Notes under the pieces: model-generated
Databases searched by the model: none
Told to the model about the DNA's origin: nothing
Seen by the model: only the letters and a program-made list of their open reading frames with translations
From: Dictyostelium discoideum
Lineage: Eukaryota
Direction: 5' to 3'
DNA: 64,000 bases
Assembly (NCBI GenBank): GCA_000004695.1
Contig: CM000152.2
Location: 1,344,001 to 1,408,000 of the forward strand
Part shown: one piece after another, positions 2,298-50,101 of the stretch
How the letters are laid out: every line of letters begins with the position of its first letter
Position numbering within the stretch: position 1 is the first letter of the stretch
Made by a program: the position numbers and the translations under genes

Positions 2298-3566
2298 TTA
2301 AAGTTTATTTTTAATTGATTGATTTAAAACTGTAATATCAACAAAATGCCAACAATTATTCATTACACCTCTAAGATTCCAAATATCTTTAACATCTTTT
2401 GGTTGAGTATTTGAAGCAGAATCCCAAGCACGACAAACCAATCTAATTTTTTGATGATCTTTATTTTGTAATTGTGGTAATTGTGTAATGGTATATTTAA
2501 AGAGTACCCAACTCCAATATTTATTACAAACACCTTTATCTTCACCCATTAGCTCGGCATAATCCCAAGTTTCACCACCATCTAAACTAATGTCAACTCT
2601 TTCAACTTTTCTACCACCACCACTAGTTGCGTAACCAGTGATGGTGAATGGAAGATAAAGTGTAGAGTTTGGTGCAGGTATACAAATTGCACTTTGGATT
2701 GACAATTCTTGTAATGATGGTGTTTTATCCCAATACTTTTCGACATTATTCCAATCTACACCATTATGAAATATTTTATAATCCCTACGTTGAAAGAAGC
2801 TTTCACTCTCTTGAGATGACACTGTCACTTTATCCAACCATTTAACACTTCTTGCTCCAATGATACCTGGTGCTATAACTCTTAATGGGTAGCCGTGATC
2901 TCTTGGTAACGGTTCGCCATTCATTTCGTAAGCTAAAAGTACATCACCATCTAAATCCATAGCTTTCTCCATTGTAATTGAACTACCATATGGTTTACCA
3001 TTATCTTCTGGACAACCAAAATCCAATCCCCAAAATACTGCATGTAATGCACCCTCTGTCTTTGTAAATACTTTTGCATATTCTAATATATCCTTTAATC
3101 TACATCCACTCCATGATGCTGTTGATAAACTTGCAATACCCCAACCAACTCCTCTAACTTTTTTATATTCACTCATCATTGTTCTTCTATTACCTGCACA
3201 CTTTTTTTTTTTTTTAAAAATAATTAATAAATATTCAATTTTTTAATAATAATAGTAATAAAATATACTTACTTGAATTGAAGCATTAATTGTAACTTTT
3301 TCAAATTTATTTTTGATATCAGATAATGATAAAATTAATGGATTACCAACTAAACCATCTACTTTTAATGCATATGATTCACCATTAATATCTGGTACAG
3401 GTGCATGATTTCTCACATAAAATTTCTCTGTTGGTGTAATAAATTGTTGAACTAATACATCTTGTCTTGGTTCTGCATTAAATGGTGCTTTAAAATTAAT
3501 TGTAAAATCTGGATCTCTATATGGCTCATTTGCAAAAGATACATTTTGGTTATTATTATGTTGCAT
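2298..3566 (-). CDS. Sulfite oxidase-family molybdopterin oxidoreductase: Moco-binding domain plus Moco dimerisation domain, no cytochrome b5 domain; complement join(3273..3566,2298..3200)
   Basis: Exon 1 (MQHNNNQNVSFANEPYRDPDFTINFKAPFNAEPRQDVLVQQFITPTEKFYVRNHAPVPDINGESYALKVDGLVGNPLILSLSDIKNKFEKVTINASIQ) ends at a GTAAGT donor at 3272. The poly(A)-AG acceptor at 3201-3202 places exon 2 at 3200. This join reconstitutes the conserved sulfite-oxidase motif ...ASIQ|CAGNRRTMMSEYKKVRGV... (human SUOX has TLQCAGNRRSEM). Exon 2 carries the dimerisation domain. The intron is 72 nt. Confidence 0.85.
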
Positions 3567-4298: not shown

Positions 4299-5246
4299 CT
4301 ATTCCCACCAATCCTTAGTAATTGGAATATAACCTTGTTTAATTTTATCAGAAACAAATTCTTCCAAAGTTTTATAAGAAACAGTTGTTGTTGGTGATTG
4401 ACCACTTAAAGAAGTTGAGTTTCTTGTGGGAACGGTAGTACTAGCTTCATTGAATTTAAGTTCTTGATTTAAATTGTTTACACTTGAAGAACGAGAAATT
4501 GTAGGAGAAGTTGTACTACTATTAGTTGGCGATATATTGGAACCTCCACTACTACCACTACTATTTAAACTTGATGCTAAAAGTTCATTTAAATTTTGTG
4601 ATGAACCACTTTTTGGTATATTATTACTTGAATTTGAACTTGAACTACTACTACTACTACTACTGCTACTAACCCTTCTTGGTGGTAAATTTTCAACATG
4701 ATAGCCATGAGAAGATGATTTAATGATTGAATGTAATATTTTTCTATGAGGATCGGATAAATAAGAGAATACAAATGAACCTGGTCTACTATTAGAATTT
4801 CTAATGATGAAACCACCAGCAGGTGCACCAGAAAGTAGAGATGCAACACCTTGAGTTTCAAGTGTTTGAAAGAACCATCTCTTTTCAAATACACCGGCCT
4901 CTTTTAACTTCATTTTTGCTTTTTTCTCTAATTCATGAGCGATATCAGTACCAGGTCTAATGGCAGCCCAACCTCTTAAAGCTTCAGCCCAATTAAAGAG
5001 AGCATAATGATGATTTCTTTTAAGTTTTACAGCAAGTTGAAACTTTTCAATTGCAGACTGATATAATTTTTCAATTTCAGCTTTACCATGTGCTTTGATA
5101 TATGTTTTATTTGAAATTAATCTTGCACGCATTGATAATAAAATTCCCCAATGTGTAAGTATTTCATAATCATCTGGTTTTGATTGAATTGCTACTTTAA
5201 ATTTCTCTGCTGCTTGTATAAATAAATTATCTGCAGAATTTGTTAA

Positions 5247-5306
<60 letters not shown>

Positions 5307-5775
5307 ATTATCATCACTTCCATCATTTGATCCGTCAGGATTATTATTATTATTATTAATATTATTTGAAGTATTATTTGAAGTTGAAGTAGTAGTTGAA
5401 GTATTTGTTGGTTGTTGTGGTTGTGGTTGTGGTTGTTGTTGTTGTTGTTGTTGTTTTGATAATGAAATTGCTTGATGAAATAAACTTACACCTTGTTGAT
5501 AAGGAATGGAGTGAAGAAATTTAACTTTTGGTGTAATAGAAATGATATCATCAGGTTGTATGGATTCACTTTGATCACCCAATTTTTTATATAAACCATC
5601 TCTAAATACAATACCCATCATTTGTGAAATTCTATACAATAACAATTCCAAAGAAAATCCATCTAAATCACAACTTTGTAATAATGAAATACACATCATT
5701 CTATTTAAAAATTTACAAATATCCGGTAAATTAATATTATAATTTATATTATTGTTATTATTCGGATTATTATCA

Positions 5776-5830
<55 letters not shown>

Positions 5831-6881
5831 CTATACTATTATTATTATTATTATTATTTATTAATGGTAATGATCTTAAAAAACTTCTTAATCTATTTTT
5901 AATTTTTCTAGCTATAATTTCAGTATTTATAATTGTTGACAAACGTTGGTCAATTGCATGAAAATCAGTTTTTTTTAAACGTTGTAAATAACGAACGTTT
6001 ATACCTTCACGATGCATACTATCGATTAACATTAGATTTTGAGAAAGTTCCATAATATTTTTACATTTTGTTTTCTTTACTTTTTGATTCATTAATAATA
6101 CAAAACTTGGAATGATATGATTGAGTAAACGTTTTTGTGATCTTTCAACCTCTTCATTGTTTTTATCTCTATCGGGACCAGCAAACTTTGTAAAGGCATC
6201 AGAGGATAGGGGCATCTTTGAACTTCGTACCAATTCGGGTCTAAGAAGTGTATAAAGATGTGAACCTGTTTTACCGGGTATTGGCTTCTCTGGTGGGAAA
6301 ACTCTAGCTGTATCGATTACAACGAAATGATTATCCTTTGTGATATGTCCTTCAATATCGCATGGCCCATATAGAAATGTTTTATTATCGCTCTGACCAG
6401 TATAATGACCTTTTAAATTCAATATTTCACCGGCTTTTCTCATTTTGTCTTCCATCTCTTCGCTTTTATTATAAACTGTTTCACCACCATCATTGGATCC
6501 ATACACCAATGTTTTATCACCATCGATATTAAGTTGAGATGTTGCAATTAATCTATAACCCATATAATCGATCAATGTCATCAATGGTAAAAACAAACCA
6601 TCGATTTGACAATTGAAATATCCCATTAACCCTTTTAATTCATGACCTGCTGACTTCATTGCAAATGCATCGCCACCATAAATACCATAACAATCTACTG
6701 CAAACTTAAAAAATATACCACTCTTTAAATATTTTAATCCACCTGCAACTCCACCTGCATCATATGATGGTATTGTCCATCCACTTGATAATCCTTTCTC
6801 TTGAATAATAGTTACACCATGTTTTGTTGCAACATTTACAAATTCTTCTGCAATTGCTTGAATTTTTTGACTTCTTTTTCT
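4299..6881 (-). CDS. Multidomain protein with an N-terminal Clu (clustered-mitochondria) domain, a central TPR-like region and a C-terminal SH2 domain; the 5' end is unresolved
   Basis: The 786-aa ORF (ATG at 6659) stays open in frame upstream to a TAA at 6882-6884. That upstream stretch encodes a compositionally normal peptide (RKRSQKIQAIAEEFVNVATKHGVTIIQEKGLSSGWTIPSYDAGGVAGGLKYLKSGIFFKFAVDCYGIYGGDAFA, then MKSAGHELKGLMGY...LIDYMGYRLIATSQL), which looks like a Clu-domain signature. The middle of the protein has TPR-like helices (AEKFKVAIQSKPDDYEILTHWGILLSMRARL...NWAEALRGWAAI). The C-terminus has an SH2 domain (WFFQTLETQGVASLLSGAPAGGFIIRNSNSRPGSFVFSYLSDPHRKILHSI...YHVENL, with the FLVR-type Arg) at about 4690..4900. 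The coding region contains long (AAT)n and (CAA)n tracts. No in-frame ATG exists between 6660 and 6881, so an upstream exon or start is needed. Confidence 0.65.
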
Positions 6882-6997
6882 TTATTATCATTATTAAAAA
6901 TAAAATAAAATAAAATAATTAATAAATTTTAAATCTAAAAACTTTTTTTTTTTTTTTTTTTTATAGTTTTTTTCAAATTCTGTGTAAATTTTTCAAT

Positions 6998-8374
6998 TTA
7001 TTGTTGTACATACAAATTTTCATTACCACAATTATGATCCATTTGTAAAGCATTCCAAAAATCTAATGACCAATTTCTAATTGGTTCAGTTGGTTTTTCA
7101 ATCTCTTCCTTTTTAAATAAACTACCTAAACCATTTGAATTATTAATCTTTGTTTTCAACGCTTCTAAATCTCCAATTGATAATTTTTCAAAATGTAAAT
7201 CACCACTACTATCACTCATATTACCTAAACTATTAATTGCTTTTTCTTTTAAATTTGTTGTAGTTGTTGTTGTAGTTGTTGTTGTTGTTGTCGATTCATT
7301 ATTATCGTTATAATTATCATTATCGCTATCACTATCATCTTCATTTGGATTATAATCATCTTCGACATATAGTGGAGATGGAGCTGATCCCATATTTAAA
7401 CTTGACCTATTATTATTAATACCTCTACTACTACTATTTTTATTTTGTAAACTATTATTAGGATTATTAGAATTATTATGAATAAAAGATGGTAATGGTG
7501 GTGAATTACCAATTTGAAAATTTGATAAGTTTGGTAATAAAGTATTTTGAGAAGATTTTAAACCTTCTATCTCTAAAATATTTTTATCCTTTGAAATACT
7601 AACTGGTGCACTTGATGATCTATCTCTGCTATTTCCAATTATATTTATATTTTTATTTATTGATATTGATGATTTTGATGTTGATGTTGTAGTATTTGTT
7701 GTTGTTGTTGTGGTGGTGGTTGTAGTGGTGGTTGTAGTTGTCGAGGCTTTATCTACATTACCATATAATGATTGTTGTTGTTGTTGAGAATTTACTTTAC
7801 CATCTCCACCACCATTAAAGTTATAATATACAGCCTGATTAAATTTTGGAATTGAAACAGGATTATAATGATCTACCCTATTAATTGGTCCCATTGGTAC
7901 CAATACTGGATTACTACATGATATTTCAAATAAATCTGATGCAATTAGAGGTGATTTCTTTAATTTATCAATATAAATAAAAACTTCATTTATTGAAACT
8001 TTGTTATTATTATTATTATTATTTGTTGTAGAAGTGGTGGTGGTAGTGGATGATTTCGAAGATCTTCTTGTTGATGGTGAGGAGGTTGGTGTTGGTGTTG
8101 ATGGGGAAGAGGATGATGACGAAGATGATGATGATGATGATGAATCTGGAGATGTTGCTTTTTTCTTTAAAAAAATTAATAAAATAACATATTTGATAAA
8201 GTTTTCTGAATCATCAGGGTTCTCTTCAAACCTTTTGTGGAGATCTGGTAATGATAATAATAATTCATTTATATCTGTATTTGTTCCCATTTTATTTGGT
8301 GATATTGTTAATTCAATACCACCACCTATCCCTTTTTTACTTTTATTATTTTCATTAACAATTGATGTTGTCAT
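6998..8374 (-). CDS. Hypothetical Ser/Thr/Asn-rich low-complexity protein
   Basis: A 458-aa ORF with a true ATG at 8374..8372. Most of it is homopolymeric S/T/N, with non-repetitive ends (MTTSIVNENNKSKKGIGGGIELTISPNKMGTNTDINELLLSLPDLHKRF... and ...PTEPIRNWSLDFWNALQMDHNCGNENLYVQQ). I recognise no domain. Confidence 0.45.
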   Translation of the reverse strand: MTTSIVNENNKSKKGIGGGIELTISPNKMGTNTDINELLLSLPDLHKRFEENPDDSENFIKYVILLIFLKKKATSPDSSSSSSSSSSSSSPSTPTPTSSPSTRRSSKSSTTTTTSTTNNNNNNNKVSINEVFIYIDKLKKSPLIASDLFEISCSNPVLVPMGPINRVDHYNPVSIPKFNQAVYYNFNGGGDGKVNSQQQQQSLYGNVDKASTTTTTTTTTTTTTTTNTTTSTSKSSISINKNINIIGNSRDRSSSAPVSISKDKNILEIEGLKSSQNTLLPNLSNFQIGNSPPLPSFIHNNSNNPNNSLQNKNSSSRGINNNRSSLNMGSAPSPLYVEDDYNPNEDDSDSDNDNYNDNNESTTTTTTTTTTTTNLKEKAINSLGNMSDSSGDLHFEKLSIGDLEALKTKINNSNGLGSLFKKEEIEKPTEPIRNWSLDFWNALQMDHNCGNENLYVQQ

Positions 8375-8647
8375 GGTAGTATTATTATTTTATTTTTACT
8401 TTTTACTTTTTACTTTTTACTTTTAACTTTTAACTTTTTACTTTTTACTTTTTACTTTTTATATAGTTTGAATTTATTTTTACTTAATTTTATTTTAAAT
8501 GGTATATTAATTTTATTTTTATTATTTTTTTTTAATTTTATGTATTCTATTTATAAATATTGATGTAGTATATTTGAAATGACACTTCATATATTTATAT
8601 ATATAATTGAAAAGAAAAAAAAAAAAAAGATTAATAAATTCAAAAAT

Positions 8648-32505: not shown

Positions 32506-34681
32506 ATTAAATTTATCATCAAATTCATTAATTGAAGTTACATCATTAGGACATTTAAATAAATTAAAAAGATTAATATTGAATAGAAATAATTTAATTG
32601 AATATTCAGTTCAAGGACTTTCATCATTAGTTTATTTAGGATTATGTAATAATAGAATCGATCGTATTACTGATATGTCAGATTGTAAGAAATTGATTAA
32701 TATCGATCTTAGTGGTAACCGATTAACATGTGGTGATGGATTTGATCATTTCTCAAAATTGAAATCATTAAAAGTTTTAGATTTGTCAAGTAATTCAATC
32801 AATTGTTCATTAATTGATTTTCAAAAAAAGATTTTAGAACCGTTAAAGAAATCTAAAACTTTAGAATATTTATCATTTGAAAATAATTTAATTGAAAAGA
32901 AATATGAAGAGTTTAGATTATTTGTAATTAATGAATTACCAAAATTAAAATACTTAAATTGGGTATTAATTTCAAAAGATGAAAGAACAAAAGCTTCAAA
33001 ATTAGATAGTGAAGGTTTCTTTTCAAAACAATTATCAATTTTAAGTGTTACTCCAGTTGTTCATAATAATAATAATCCAAATAATACTGTAACATCAGCT
33101 CAATCTTCACCATCATTAAGTAGTGTATCAACACCAATTCCAACTCCATTAAATACTAGTAGTAATAATATTGGTGGTGGTGGTAGTGGTACTACTACAA
33201 GTGTATCAGTTGGATCATCACCAACAATTAGAGGTATGCCATCATCACCAAATAGTAGATCAACAAGTTTTATTCAACGTAAACCATCGGTTGGTGCAAA
33301 TATGATGCCAAAATTAAATTCTTCCTTGAATAGATCAACTGATTTCCTTGGTAAAGAAAGAGAGAATCATCAATCAACTTCACCATCTTCTTCATCATTA
33401 TCAATATCATCATCATCACAAAATAATAATAGTAATCATCATCATCATCATCCAAAATCAATTGATGAAACACCAGAGGTATTATCACCATTTGATATTT
33501 TACAATCAAAAGTTAATGCAGAGAATTGTTTATCTTCATCACAACAAGATTTAATTGTTAATCATAATAATCTAACAACAGCTAGTCAGATTTTACAAGA
33601 AATTAAACCAACTAAAGAATTAACTAAACAAGAAACTGAAGATTATATTGATATTCTTTTGAATGAATTACAACCAAATAATACAGATTTCCCAACATTT
33701 GCTTCCGTTATTGATCAAAAGGTTTATTTGGATTTGTTATATCGTGCAATCATTGAGGATGCAATTCCAGAGGAACTAATTGAAGAATGTAATAAATCAA
33801 CTACAACTGCTGCTACTGCTGCTGCTGTCGTTGATTTTGTTACACCACAATTAACATCGTTATCATCGTCCTCTTCTTCTTCATCAACAACACCACCACA
33901 ACCACAACTACCACCACCACCACCACAACAACAACAATTAGATTTATCATTACCATTGCCACCAGTTAATATTATTAATATGCCAATGGACGATGATGAA
34001 CTAATTAGTGTACCAACTGATGAGAGTGAATTACCAGTTGTATCGACTATTGTACCATCATTAGTTAAAGAATCATCAAGAGAATCATTATTAGTTACAA
34101 CTATTGATAACTCAACATTATCAACCACTCCACCATTATCATCAACTACACCACCATCACCATCACCAAAATTACCAACTCTTGAAGAAACTATTGAAAG
34201 TGTTGTAACTGCTAAACCATCTTCAACCACCACTACTGCCACTCAAACTAATAAAGTTTCTGGTGGTTCTGCTAAAGAAATTTGGACTAAAATTGATCAA
34301 AATACTGCAACCACACCATCAACTCCATCTAAAAATTTACCAAAAAGATTACCATCTCAATCAAATCTTATTAATAATAATAATAATAATAATGTTATAA
34401 ATGTACCACCACCAACTCAATCAATTTTAAAACCAGTAGTAGGAGGAGGAAGTGGTTCAACACCATCATCACCACAAATGAAACCAATGGCTAAACCAAT
34501 TGCTAAAATTCCAGCAGTTTCCACAACAACCAATACCACCCCAACTTCCACACCAGGTTCACCAAGTAAACCAATTATGAAACCAGTCATTAAAAAAGTA
34601 CCTGCAATCTCATTAAAACAAGATCAACCACCAATTGTATCACCACCACAACCACAACCACAACCACCAATTGTACAACAA

Positions 34682-34720
<39 letters not shown>

Positions 34721-35465
34721 CCACAACAACATTTTAAATCAGAAATTGATAAAGCATTAGCAGATATTGATTCATGGGGAGTTATACCAACAGCACCACA
34801 AGCAGAAATTAAAAAACCAATAATACCACAAGAATTATTATCAAATATTCAAAAAGTTGAAAGTCCAACTGAAATGGTTGAAAATGCAACCTCAAAATTG
34901 GATGAAATGATTATGGAATATCATAATACTTCACCAACTTCTTCACCAACTAATACAAGAAAGAGTATTACACCTGTTCAACAACAACAACCAATTCAAC
35001 AACCAATTCAACAACCAATTCAACAACCAATTCAACAACCAATTCAACAACCAATTCAACAACAACAACAACCACCAATTCAACAAATTGATCAAGTTCA
35101 AAGAATGATTAATAATGAAACTAATAGAATTGGATCAATGATGATATTAGGACAAAACATATCATTACCAAATTGGATAGTACCACATGATCAAATTCAA
35201 GTTGGTAGTAGATTAGGATTAGGTAGTTTTGGTGATTGTTACACTGGTAATGCATTCTCAATACCAACGATTTTAAAGAAATTAAGAACTCAAAGATTTA
35301 CTGATCAATTTTTAGGTCAATTTAAAAATGAAGTTATGCAAATCAGAGAATTACAACATGAAAATCTTGTACCAGTTTCAGGTTGTTGTTTAGATAATAA
35401 TATCTATATCGTTCATCCATATTATGACGCAAGTAATTTACAAACATTATTATTTGAACAATCAC

Positions 35466-35542
<77 letters not shown>

Positions 35543-38125
35543 CATACAATCATCAGTAATGAATTCATTCATCGTGTTTCATTGGGTATTTCAAAAGCAA
35601 TGACTTATTTACATTCACATGATGTTGTACATCGTGCATTAAAATTGAATAATATTCTAATTGATCGTGTTAGTGGTAATGTGTTGGTACGTGATTATGG
35701 TTTCAATTTCGTAAAGGATGGTATTTTCCGTACTGGTCAACAAAGTTCACCTTATTTAGCACCAGAGTTATTCAATAGTAATTGTAACCAATATGACACA
35801 AATTCTGATCAATTTGGATTCGCAATGATTTTATTACAATTATTCACACGTTCACCATTGTTCCAAGATATTCATGTATCTCGTATAACTGATACAATCT
35901 TAAATGGTGTTCGTCCAGAGATACCCGATAATGTTCCATCAGTATTTAGTCGTTTAATTAAAGCATGTTGGAGTGCTGATTCATCAGCTAGACCATCATT
36001 CTTAACAATTTCAAAGATTTTATCACAACCATTTCAACGTATTTTCGCATTATCACCATCAACTACAATTACAAAACCAATTGTTTCAACTGGTAATACT
36101 ACAATTGATAGCAGTAGCAGTAGCAGTGGTAGTGGTAGTAGTAGTGTAGTTGGTTCAGTTAATAGTACAACTATACCACCAGTAAATAATAGTAATACTG
36201 GTAGTACTGGTAGTACAAGTGCAACAGTTAAACATCAATTTAGTGAAACTGGTGAATTAAATAGAAAGATGATTTTAGTATTAGAACGTATTGTTTCAAT
36301 GTTATCAACAGCAGCAGCATCAGCATCAACATCAACAATATCAACTGATTCAATAGATTCAATTAAACGTGCACTTAAAGCATTAGAGAATTTAAGTTCA
36401 CCAGAGAATCATTCATCAATGGTTGGTATTGGATTAATGAGATCATTATGTTTTATTGGTACTATTCATTTAGCAGAAATTGATGAACAATTATTACGTG
36501 TAATTTATTCTCTATCAACTAATGAACAACTATCAAATGAATTCATATTAGCAGGTGGTTTCACACCATTATCACAATGGGTATCATCTTCATCATCATC
36601 ATCAACAAGTGCAAACATTTCATTATTAGCAATTAAATTATTAACAGTATTAGCTGATGAACAACATTTACATCATGTAAGATTAACTGGTATTTTATCA
36701 AGTTTAACTCAACAATTTGTAAATTATACAAGTAATAATCAAAATGGTGGTGGTGGTAGTGGTGGAGGTGTAATTAATGAAACTATTATTTTACAATCAG
36801 TTGGTGCAATGTCACGTATTCTATTGAATCAAGATAATCAAAATCAATTCATTGAAGAGGGTGGTGTATCATCATTATTGAAAATGTTATTAAATTCTGG
36901 TAATAGTTTATCAATGAGAGCATTGTTAGCATTGTGTTGTTTAATCTCAAATCAAAATTGTAAATCACAATTACACAATGCTGGTATCATACCAAAGCTT
37001 ATGGAATTATTAAGTTCACCTCAAAAACTTTTAAGATTACATTCATTAAAAGTAATTGAAACAATGTCAAAAGATATTGAATTTAGAAAATTATTAATTC
37101 AAGATAATTGTTTATCATTATTAGTTAATTTATTATTAAATTCTTATAATGGTACTAATACTGGTATTGGTAACAATACTACTGGTAATAATAATGACAG
37201 TCAAGAATCAATTTGTTCAATTTTATCATGTATCGGTTCATTATTAAAGAATCAAATTGCATTAGAATCATTTTATCAAAGTAATGGTGTTGATGTTTTA
37301 ATTAAACTTATTGGTTATAATCAACAAATTGAAATTTTAGAATCATTATTCCCAGTGTATTGTTTATTAATTAATCATGAACAATCACGTTTGAAATTAG
37401 TACCAACTATTAATCAATTGGTTGAGATCTTGTCAAATTCAACACTAAAAGAATCAATTATAATTTCAATTTTGAAATGTTTAACATTATTCTCGAGTCA
37501 TAGCTCTTGTATTGAATTCATTGAGCAGAGTATGTCAGTTTCAATAGTTTCAACACTACTCATTCGTAATGAGAATAATTATGAAATTAAAATCCATTCA
37601 CTCAGATTCGTAAGTTCCCTCGCAAAGGTTAATAACAAATTGGCTGTCAATATCCATATGATGGGTATCCTGCAAACACTAGTCAACAATCTTTATGACA
37701 AGAATTCCATGATCAAGGATGAGGCAATATCAACCATCTCTTGGTTAGTAAGCTCTCAAGAATGTAGATCCATTTTCTTACAAAAGAATGTTTTACCAAT
37801 GTTATTCGATTTCCTTTCAACTAGAAATGTTGATATCATGGAGAGATTGATTTGGGCAATCTCTTTCTTTGCTCTAGATGATTCTGCTCAGTCCTTAATG
37901 AGAGACAATCAACAATGTATTCAATTCATCGTCAATTGTTTAGATAGACATGAAGAGGTTTTCAAAACACTATCAATTAAAACCATTTTAATCTTATCTC
38001 AAAAACAAATTAATCATCAAGCTTTAAAAAGAGTTGGTGTAGATTTCCAATTGCAAGTTTTATCTTCTTCTTCAAACAGATCAATTCAATTAGCTTCTAA
38101 AAAGATTTTATCTTTATTAAGTTAA
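32506..38125 (+). CDS. Leucine-rich-repeat protein with a central predicted pseudokinase domain and a C-terminal ARM-like helical-repeat region (LRR-pseudokinase-ARM); 5' exon unresolved
   Basis: The frame is open and LRR-like from the acceptor at 32504-32505. The repeats (LNLSSNSLIEVTSLGHLNKLKRLILNRNNLIEYSVQGLSSLVYLGLCNNRIDRITD...LINIDLSGNRL...LKVLDLSSNSI) continue through the listed M at 32579. Long S/T/P/Q-rich linkers follow, including a (PIQQ)n repeat. A kinase fold spans about 35190..36010 (GSRLGLGSFGDCY...IPTILKKL...EVMQIRELQHENLV...VVHRALKLNNILI...VRDYGFNF...SPYLAPELF...RPSF). It has HRA in place of HRD and DYG in place of DFG, so it is probably catalytically inactive. The C-terminal 600 aa are armadillo-like repeats. 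Confidence 0.75.
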
Positions 38126-48136: not shown

Positions 48137-50101
48137 ATGGATAACTCCAAATTATTTTTTAAAGTTTGGAAAAATGTTGTAATAAAACAAAGAATATTTT
48201 ATCATACAAGATTATATAATCTACATAGACTTGAAATATTTATTGATAATATTTCTGAACAAGTTCGACCAATAAAATCTTATCCATTCAAACAATACAT
48301 CCAATCAGTTAGTTTAATGATAGTTAATGATAAATCTCTAGTATTATCAATTATCAATGATTTATTAATTTCAACTGATGGTAATTGTAAATTCTCAATA
48401 TTTTTAGATAATGATGAAAGTGATGATGAAAAGAGTGATGACGAAAATGAAAATGAAAATGAAAATGAAAATGAAAATGAAAATGAAAATGAAAATGAAA
48501 ATGAAAATGAAAATGAAAATGAAAATGAAAATGAAAATGAAAATAAAATATCAAATAATATTATAAAAGTTCCAAGTAATTTTAAAAATTTTGTTTCAAC
48601 TTTTTTAAGTGAAAAAGATTTTCAAGTAGAAATTGATAAAACATTACCTTTGATTAAAATTAATAAATTGGATATTCCAGATTCTATTCAAATTAAACCG
48701 ATTAAAACAAATCTTTTCCCAAATGATATAAATTCAATTTCAATGAGTTTTAATTATGAAAAAGAATTAAAAAATTTACCAAAACAATTAAAACAGTTAT
48801 TCCTTTTCAATAGTTTTTCATTGAATAATGAATCTTTACCAGATGGGTTAGAAAAAATTGAATTTTATGGTGAACAAAAGTTTGAATTTAAAAATGGAAT
48901 TCTACCACAATCAGTTAAACATATTGGCTTTTTTAATGGATTGAAACAATTAATATCAAGTGATTGGTTACCACAAAATCTAGAATCAATCACATTCACA
49001 AAACCTTGTAAGTTAAATGAAAATAGTTTATTACCATTAAAAAATTTAAAATCAATTATATTTGGCCCATCATTTTCAGTCAATGAAGTTTTCGATTTTG
49101 AGAATAGAAAAAGCCTAATTCCAAACTCTGTTACAAATTTATCTATAAAATGTCCATTTGATAATTTATTTCCAAATGTTTTTCCAACTGAATTATTAGT
49201 TTTAAAAACATATCCCAAAGGAGGACCCAGAGCTACTGCCACTGCTAATAATGGTGACAACAACAATAATAATAATAATAATAATAAAAAAGAAATATTA
49301 ACAATTGAAAGTGATGTATTACCTAAAAAATTAATATCATTTACAATGGGACCAAATCAATATTTTAAATCCACAAATTCAATTCCACCAAGTTTAATTA
49401 AAATACATGGTATTAATTCTTTGGAACAATTAAATTTATTACCAAATAGTGTGGTTAATATTTCTTTATCCCGTCAAATACAAAATTTTAAAGCTGGTGA
49501 TATTCCATCACATATTCAAAAATTAAAAATTTTAACAAAAAATGATGGTATATTACAAAAAGGTATATTAAATGATTGTTTATCATTAAAATCTTTAAAC
49601 CTCATTCCAAATATAAAATATATTGAGATTGGAGCATTGCCACCAAAAATAGAGCAATTGGAAATCGGATTTTCTAATGACAAGCAATCACTTTCTTCAC
49701 AACATTCATTACCAGATTCATTGAAAATATTAATTTTAAGAGATGGATCATTTCCAAATAATTTATTTGAAACACCATTTAAAAATTTGGTAGCTTTAAA
49801 AATACATTCACTTTTAACTAAACCATTTCAATTTACTTGCCTTCCTCAATCATTAATGGTTTTAGATATTTCTACTCACAATCCAATTAAATGTAGTGAG
49901 CTTCCAATATCAATCAAATATTTAGTGGCTAGAGGAAATGGAGCACTTTTATTACCACTCCCACCATCTTTAAAATTAATTTTTGTTAATAGTTCTTTTC
50001 TTTATTTAAATAATCAACCAAAAATAGTTGAAACTATATTAAAAACTTTAAATTTTGCTCAAATGACAAAAATATTTGAAAAATTAATAAAATCTCTTTA
50101 A
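48137..50101 (+). CDS. FNIP-repeat-containing protein (Dictyostelium-type FNIP repeats), 654 aa
   Basis: ATG at 48137, single ORF. The protein has repeated LPxSLxxLxFGxxFNxxI-type units (LPDGLEKIEFYGEQKFEFKNGILPQSVKHIGFFNGLKQLISSDWLPQNLESITF...LPKKLISFTMGPNQYFKSTNSIPPSLIKIHGINSLEQ...). A (GAAAAT)17 tract at 48443..48544 encodes (NE)n. Confidence 0.75.
   Translation: MDNSKLFFKVWKNVVIKQRIFYHTRLYNLHRLEIFIDNISEQVRPIKSYPFKQYIQSVSLMIVNDKSLVLSIINDLLISTDGNCKFSIFLDNDESDDEKSDDENENENENENENENENENENENENENENENENENKISNNIIKVPSNFKNFVSTFLSEKDFQVEIDKTLPLIKINKLDIPDSIQIKPIKTNLFPNDINSISMSFNYEKELKNLPKQLKQLFLFNSFSLNNESLPDGLEKIEFYGEQKFEFKNGILPQSVKHIGFFNGLKQLISSDWLPQNLESITFTKPCKLNENSLLPLKNLKSIIFGPSFSVNEVFDFENRKSLIPNSVTNLSIKCPFDNLFPNVFPTELLVLKTYPKGGPRATATANNGDNNNNNNNNNKKEILTIESDVLPKKLISFTMGPNQYFKSTNSIPPSLIKIHGINSLEQLNLLPNSVVNISLSRQIQNFKAGDIPSHIQKLKILTKNDGILQKGILNDCLSLKSLNLIPNIKYIEIGALPPKIEQLEIGFSNDKQSLSSQHSLPDSLKILILRDGSFPNNLFETPFKNLVALKIHSLLTKPFQFTCLPQSLMVLDISTHNPIKCSELPISIKYLVARGNGALLLPLPPSLKLIFVNSSFLYLNNQPKIVETILKTLNFAQMTKIFEKLIKSL
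48443..48544 (+). repeat. (GAAAAT)17 hexanucleotide repeat, coding (NE)n
   Basis: Direct read of the sequence. It lies within the FNIP-repeat gene. The unit and frame are the same as the repeat at 40731..40784. Confidence 0.9.

Follow-up and report, generated by a model that had tools for sequence, protein, structure and literature searches.

The minus strand of a 64,000-nucleotide stretch of Dictyostelium discoideum DNA (the window, in whose numbering all gene positions are given) contains an open frame at 4299-6881 that had been predicted to encode one protein in which a Clu domain and a TPR-like region precede a C-terminal SH2 domain. This raises the question of whether the locus encodes a new phosphotyrosine-regulated scaffold or a protein that is already known. 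Our analysis indicates that it is very probably cldA (DDB_G0278895) of D. discoideum, or an essentially identical allele, encoding the 1313-amino-acid, 145-kDa adaptor or scaffold protein CldA. The gene, its architecture, its binding partner LrrB and its knockout phenotype were already published in 2010-2011 (Sugden et al. 2010, J Biol Chem 285:22927, PMC2906285; Sugden et al. 2011 Dev Biol, PMC3085826). The locus is a rediscovery and not new, and as a discovery it carries little weight. Helpful additions are a corrected two-exon gene model, a split SH2 domain and a Tom20-like TPR module.

Gene model and identity of the locus

On the minus strand, no stop interrupts the frame between 6881 and the TAG codon at 4301-4299, and the first in-frame ATG in the list of open reading frames (ORFs) lies at 6659. 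The 222 nucleotides (74 codons) upstream of this ATG are still open and encode well-conserved CLU sequence. Position 6881, the 5' limit of the original interval, turned out to be an intron boundary and no start codon: bases 6881-6880 form the acceptor AG, and the coding sequence continues upstream at 8374-7014. In this upstream region, a second minus-strand ORF (8374-6998, 458 amino acids) ends a few codons past a GTATGT donor at 7013. Splicing out the intervening 134-nucleotide intron joins both ORFs in phase and gives a coding sequence of 3942 nucleotides, corresponding to 1313 amino acids and one stop codon at its end. Across the exon junction, the orthologue from Polysphondylium violaceum aligns without gaps (MDHNCGNENLKRSQKIQ versus MDHNCGNESLIRSQRIQ), and the conserved blocks of exon 1 recur in the D. 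purpureum orthologue. Based on the in-phase intron, the ungapped junction and the conservation of exon 1, the locus at 8374-4299 on the minus strand is a two-exon gene, of which the interval 4299-6881 represents exon 2 only. Apart from its conserved blocks and the ~20 residues with which the CLU domain begins, exon 1 consists mainly of low-complexity Ser/Thr/Asn tracts. The parts of the gene are as follows.

7014-8374, minus strand: coding exon 1 of cldA, with the ATG at 8374-8372, encoding amino acids 1-453 and two bases of codon 454
6880-7013, minus strand: intron of 134 nucleotides (GTATGT...AAAG, 10% G+C), placed by the phase-compatible join and the ungapped orthologue alignment
4299-6879, minus strand: coding exon 2 of cldA including the TAG stop at 4301-4299, placed by the open frame and the splice join

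From the ATG through the stop codon the gene measures 4076 bp, or 4073 bp without the stop, and the calculated mass of the protein is 145,204 Da (145.2 kDa). CldA, formerly ChaA, has been described as a 145-kDa protein with a Clu domain, TPRs near the C terminus and an SH2 domain, and the construct used for tagging it was a 'genomic fragment 298-4073 bp' from which the stop was excluded (PMC2906285). This base-exact match in length is strong evidence for the cldA locus, because its tracts are full of simple repeats that vary in length. The architecture had been put forward as unfamiliar from the CLU/TIF31 family, and the SH2 proteins named for dictyostelids on that occasion (STATs, Shk kinases, CblA, LrrB and FbxB) amount to 12. 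The published inventory for D. discoideum counts 13, namely four STATs, five kinases, CblA, FbxB, LrrB and CldA, so that the missing thirteenth member is CldA itself (PMC2906285). Within the full-text library searched, CldA/DDB_G0278895 yielded nothing after the two Sugden papers (PMC2906285, PMC3085826).

Domains of CldA

The predicted combination of domains was recovered in the 1313-residue protein, in which the Pfam matches to CLU, eIF3_p135 and SH2 all lie above their cut-offs and the TPR-like region is recognised by its predicted fold. The features are listed in the order of the protein.

6288-7075, minus strand: CLU domain, interrupted by the intron (amino acids 434-651; Pfam PF13236, E=9.6e-58, 196 bits, profile positions 1-222 of 225)
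5778-6029, minus strand: CLU-central or eIF3_p135-like segment (amino acids 738-821; Pfam PF12807, E=6.3e-8, 33.3 bits against a cut-off of 22)
4896-5240, minus strand: TPR-like module of helical hairpins (amino acids 1001-1115; six helices in the AlphaFold model with a predicted local distance difference test score, pLDDT, of 72-94; Foldseek matches)
4701-4877, minus strand: N-terminal part of the SH2 domain (amino acids 1122-1180; Pfam PF00017, E=6.5e-7, profile positions 1-59 of 77)
4380-4685, minus strand: Ser/Asn/Thr-rich insert of 102 residues (amino acids 1186-1287; orthologue alignments, pLDDT below 40)
4302-4379, minus strand: C-terminal part of the SH2 domain, SYKTLEEFVSDKIKQGYIPITKDWWE (amino acids 1288-1313; putative helix B and final strand, from the profile and the relatives)

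The N-terminal part of the SH2 domain comprises strand A, helix A, strands B to D and the next strand. It scored 29.8 bits against PF00017 in the context of the full protein and 35.6 bits as a segment alone (cut-off 21), and its sequence matches in the PDB were the SH2 domains of SHP2, RasGAP and Crk (E ~1e-4). The phosphotyrosine-binding arginine of the FLVR motif is retained, as had been predicted: R1147 (codon 4802-4800), within GGFIIRNSNS, aligns to the FLVR arginine of SHP2 and RasGAP. Furthermore, H1170 falls on the strand-D histidine of the RasGAP motif 'HFRI'. R1147 does not vary among the seven sequences of one alignment, which comprised CldA, four orthologues and the relatives P0010 and P0011 (the fragment P0012 was not among them). 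The core, the FLVR arginine and the strand-D histidine are identical throughout the five aligned dictyostelid sequences, and the whole N-terminal stretch and the tail are almost invariant.

The insert sits in a surface loop before helix B and differs in length between species. When it was removed in silico, the Pfam SH2 match grew to profile positions 1-75 of 77 with a score of 40.9 bits. P0010 and P0011 come from uncultured organisms and have the Tom20-like TPR module as well. Their SH2 domain passes straight from the strand after D into the same tail, of the form ...Y.TLEDFV.AKSN.GYIPIV.KWW, and in its contiguous state covers profile positions 1-74 of 77. When P0010 was modelled with AlphaFold (mean pLDDT 80.5), the model superposed on the SH2 domains of SHP2 and RasGAP at ~2 Å over 84-105 columns (E ~1e-5), with TM-scores relative to the target of 0.65-0.71 for isolated SH2 domains. 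From the match after deletion of the insert, the contiguous tail of the relatives and the fold of P0010, we infer that the SH2 domain of CldA is complete, although a low-complexity loop ahead of helix B interrupts it; helix B itself is assigned from the profile and the relatives.

Near the end of the insert (window positions 4380-4460, amino acids ~1261-1287), all dictyostelid orthologues keep the short motif FNEAxTTxPTRNxTSLS, in contrast to the remainder of the insert. This motif might serve for docking or be phosphorylated.

An SH2 domain disrupted by 102 additional residues might also be degenerate, serving a structural or phosphotyrosine-independent role. The native Pfam match does end at position 59 of 77, and in the AlphaFold model of the native protein, which covered the C-terminal 315 residues, the SH2 region was modelled poorly (pLDDT 40-55). 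The helix-A arginine is absent as well, and at least one SH2 domain of Dictyostelium, that of STATb, is atypical (PMC2906285). Nevertheless, we regard degeneration as unlikely. The FLVR arginine, the strand-D histidine and the whole core do not vary among the five dictyostelid sequences, and the metagenome relatives keep the pocket motif F(I/F)IRNSNSRPG and the strand-D histidine even though their core differs elsewhere. In addition, the conserved C-terminal helix restores the match of 75 out of 77 profile positions once the insert is taken out, the insert itself is a surface loop of variable length, and P0010, the contiguous relative, is modelled as a canonical SH2 fold.

Upstream of the complete but split SH2 domain, the eIF3_p135 segment runs on into a poly-Asn tract, and its PF12807 match is shared with the orthologues. 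For the Clu region, no relative of known structure was found by sequence search of the PDB. In the Pfam scan of the 1313-residue protein, the CLU_N domain (PF15044) had no match at E<=1, the TPR models TPR_2, TPR_11 and TPR-S stayed below threshold (E=0.06-0.14) without any TPR_12/TPR_10-type array, and the TOM20_plant match (E=0.021) was likewise below threshold. The top Foldseek match in the PDB for the helical module at amino acids 1001-1115 was Arabidopsis Tom20 (1zu2, E=5.7e-3, probability 1.0), and many TPR domains ranked behind it (probability ~1.0, E of at least 5.7e-3). The label 'TPR-like' is hence justified by the predicted fold without backing from sequence profiles, and judged by the model the module most resembles plant Tom20. 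As far as the available text of the two papers goes, the split SH2 domain and the Tom20-like TPR module go beyond the published descriptions of CldA (PMC2906285, PMC3085826).

The CLU and eIF3_p135 domains are common to CldA and the CLU/TIF31 family (CluA, Clu1, CLUH), the closest structural match of the TPR-like module is a mitochondrial import receptor of plants, and the authors of the first CldA study remarked on a domain order parallel to that of CluA (PMC2906285). CldA might on these grounds be a functional member of this family, an mRNA-binding factor of mitochondrial distribution that has gained an SH2 domain. We consider this quite improbable. CldA has neither the CLU_N domain nor the TPR_12-type array according to Pfam, and shares just 25% identity with P0009, a CluA-like dictyostelid protein that carries PF15044 and TPR_12-type repeats. 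A separate, bona fide cluA is present in Dictyostelium (PMC2906285, PMC3085826), and on these points the reading of CldA as a true CLU orthologue was dropped. Moreover, mitochondrial clustering was not seen in lrrB- cells (PMC2906285), and the known phenotype of cldA- cells consists of a handful of changed transcripts and a partial arrest at the mound stage (PMC2906285, PMC3085826). The proposal of an RNA- or mitochondria-associated scaffold, which had accompanied the original prediction, finds no support in view of the lack of mitochondrial clustering in lrrB- cells and the missing CLU_N domain and long TPR array. The prediction was correct in stating that canonical CLU/TIF31 proteins do not have this architecture.

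The remaining alternative, two separate genes encoding a low-complexity protein (ORF 8374-6998) and a Clu-TPR-SH2 protein starting at ATG 6659, was dropped as highly improbable despite the separate listing of both ORFs by the ORF finder and the upstream ORF's own stop at 7000-6998, because the CLU domain starts at 7075 inside exon 1 (amino acid 434, profile position 1) and spans both exons, so that a start at 6659 would cost ~95 of its residues, because the 222 nucleotides upstream of 6659 are open and code for conserved CLU sequence, because a consensus GTATGT...AG intron links the ORFs in phase, because the proteins of D. purpureum and P. violaceum are collinear over the junction, and because the published gene length and mass match the joined model only (PMC2906285).

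Partners, relatives and surroundings of cldA

The published experiments place CldA in a phosphotyrosine-dependent interaction, and in this respect the predicted link to phosphotyrosine is well founded. LrrB is an adaptor with SH2, LRR and 14-3-3 features. CldA and its SH2-less paralogue CldB co-purify with LrrB only if the arginine of the LrrB SH2 domain is intact, and far more of both is recovered after treatment with pervanadate, which raises tyrosine phosphorylation (PMC2906285). LrrB-GFP and CldA-CTAP co-immunoprecipitate reciprocally (PMC2906285, PMC3085826). In cldA- cells, the growth-phase genes cinB, ttdA and abcG10 are under-expressed, as in lrrB- cells but less strongly, and many aggregates stop as flattened mounds (PMC2906285, PMC3085826).

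Together with the domain analysis, these data indicate that CldA is a non-catalytic scaffold made up of a low-complexity N-terminus, the Clu and CLU-central domains, the small Tom20-like TPR module and the insert-split SH2 domain. The SH2 domain of LrrB would dock on a candidate phosphotyrosine of CldA or CldB. Since the FLVR arginine and the strand-D histidine are kept, the SH2 domain of CldA itself probably binds a further phosphotyrosine ligand, and the Clu and TPR parts could provide an effector or localisation surface. CldA, CldB and LrrB would in this way form a small network of SH2 adaptors through which the expression of specific genes is influenced.

Several points weigh against the assignment to cldA and against a working SH2 scaffold. 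No D. discoideum entry was returned by the exact-sequence look-up or, among the matches listed, by the homology searches with the full protein and with the TPR and SH2 segment. Because no D. discoideum record matched, the identification was made from the mass of the protein, the length of the gene, the domain architecture and the two publications, and not from a residue alignment. CldA lacks the second (helix-A) arginine of Src-type SH2 domains. Finally, cldA- cells do not copy the phototaxis and late-development defects of lrrB- cells (PMC3085826). As the late defects are not phenocopied, the partnership of CldA and LrrB would be confined to certain stages.

Orthologues of CldA were taken from among the matches listed in a homology search with the full protein (8000 candidates, driven by low-complexity sequence). 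Proteins combining CLU, eIF3_p135 and SH2 domains were detected in D. purpureum (DICPUDRAFT_158242, 66% identity), P. violaceum (CYY_001877, 62%) and two EukProt entries. The search with the TPR and SH2 segment, which is free of low-complexity sequence, returned three short metagenome/Logan fragments and none of the orthologues of the full-protein search.

A cassette of Tom20-like TPR and SH2 from uncultured organisms was observed on the contigs L001 (Logan SRR30000138, positions 147-908, 41% G+C) and L002-L004 (positions 6-626). These relatives are 45-58% identical to CldA in the cassette, have an uninterrupted SH2 domain and share the C-terminal ending ...GYIPIxKxWW. The contigs stop at the 5' edge of the homology or within ~150 nucleotides of it, and an upstream Clu domain would fall outside them. 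It may be speculated, with very little confidence, that the Tom20-like TPR and split SH2 cassette is a conserved signalling unit older than the Dictyostelia, which possibly couples phosphotyrosine signalling via the Clu core to a CLUH-like mitochondrial or mRNA function, with the Ser-rich insert as a regulatory (for example phosphorylated) loop.

The window as a whole has a base composition of 22% G+C and plentiful poly-Asn, poly-Ser and poly-Thr coding tracts, as is typical of Dictyostelium. Fourteen nucleotides upstream of the cldA start, in the presumed 5' untranslated region or promoter, a tandem heptamer occurs at 8388-8461, reading (TTTTACT)x10.7 on the plus strand and AGTAAAA on the gene strand. 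Directly downstream of cldA and on the same strand lies a sulfite-oxidase-like gene (2298-3566, minus strand; Oxidored_molyb and Mo-co_dimer domains), whose ORF pieces 3243-3566 and 2298-3179 are probably split by a short intron. Two large ORFs at 17340-21461 (minus strand) and 32579-38125 (plus strand) each encode a protein-kinase domain and C-terminal armadillo (ARMC5-like) repeats. Lying ~11 kb apart on opposite strands, they may be paralogues. Other neighbours, all on the plus strand, are an RGS-domain ORF (14187-14840), an ORF of the tubulin-tyrosine-ligase family (24428-25840) and an FNIP-repeat ORF (48137-50101). A tRNA scan of the 64-kb window found none.

Comparison with known systems

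Members of the CLU/TIF31 family (Dictyostelium CluA, yeast Clu1, Drosophila Clueless and human CLUH) show, like CldA, the succession of PF13236, PF12807 and helical repeats. In comparison to them, CldA is without the CLU_N domain and the long TPR_12 array, and adds a C-terminal SH2 domain and a long low-complexity N-terminal region. Closer relatives are found among SH2-less Clu paralogues of dictyostelids (H. album PPL_00531 and D. purpureum DICPUDRAFT_152393), in which the Clu/eIF3_p135 core is ~39% identical to that of CldA; some SH2-less Clu paralogues carry a villin headpiece, LRR or SPRY domain according to Pfam. Because the identity to these paralogues is ~39% and that to the CluA-like P0009 just 25%, CldA is, on sequence comparison, a dictyostelid paralogue within the Clu-domain superfamily and not a CLU/TIF31 orthologue. 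CldB (DDB_G0276091) co-purifies with LrrB as CldA does, but has no SH2 domain (PMC2906285).

The best matches of the SH2 domain, both in sequence and in fold, are metazoan SH2 adaptors (the C-SH2 of SHP2, the N-SH2 of p120RasGAP, and Crk), with which CldA shares the FLVR arginine and the strand-D histidine. Identity to these domains is ~30%, and CldA differs from them by the 102-residue low-complexity insert before helix B and by the absence of the helix-A arginine. Clu and TPR partners are not combined with SH2 domains in metazoa (PMC2906285).

The closest system is published CldA itself (PMC2906285, PMC3085826). The architecture, the mass of 145 kDa and the length of 4073 bp are the same, no difference was detected against the available parts of the two papers, and the AT-rich sequence with its many simple repeats is as expected for D. 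discoideum. CldA remains of biological interest as a member of the only SH2 network outside animals that has been studied functionally.

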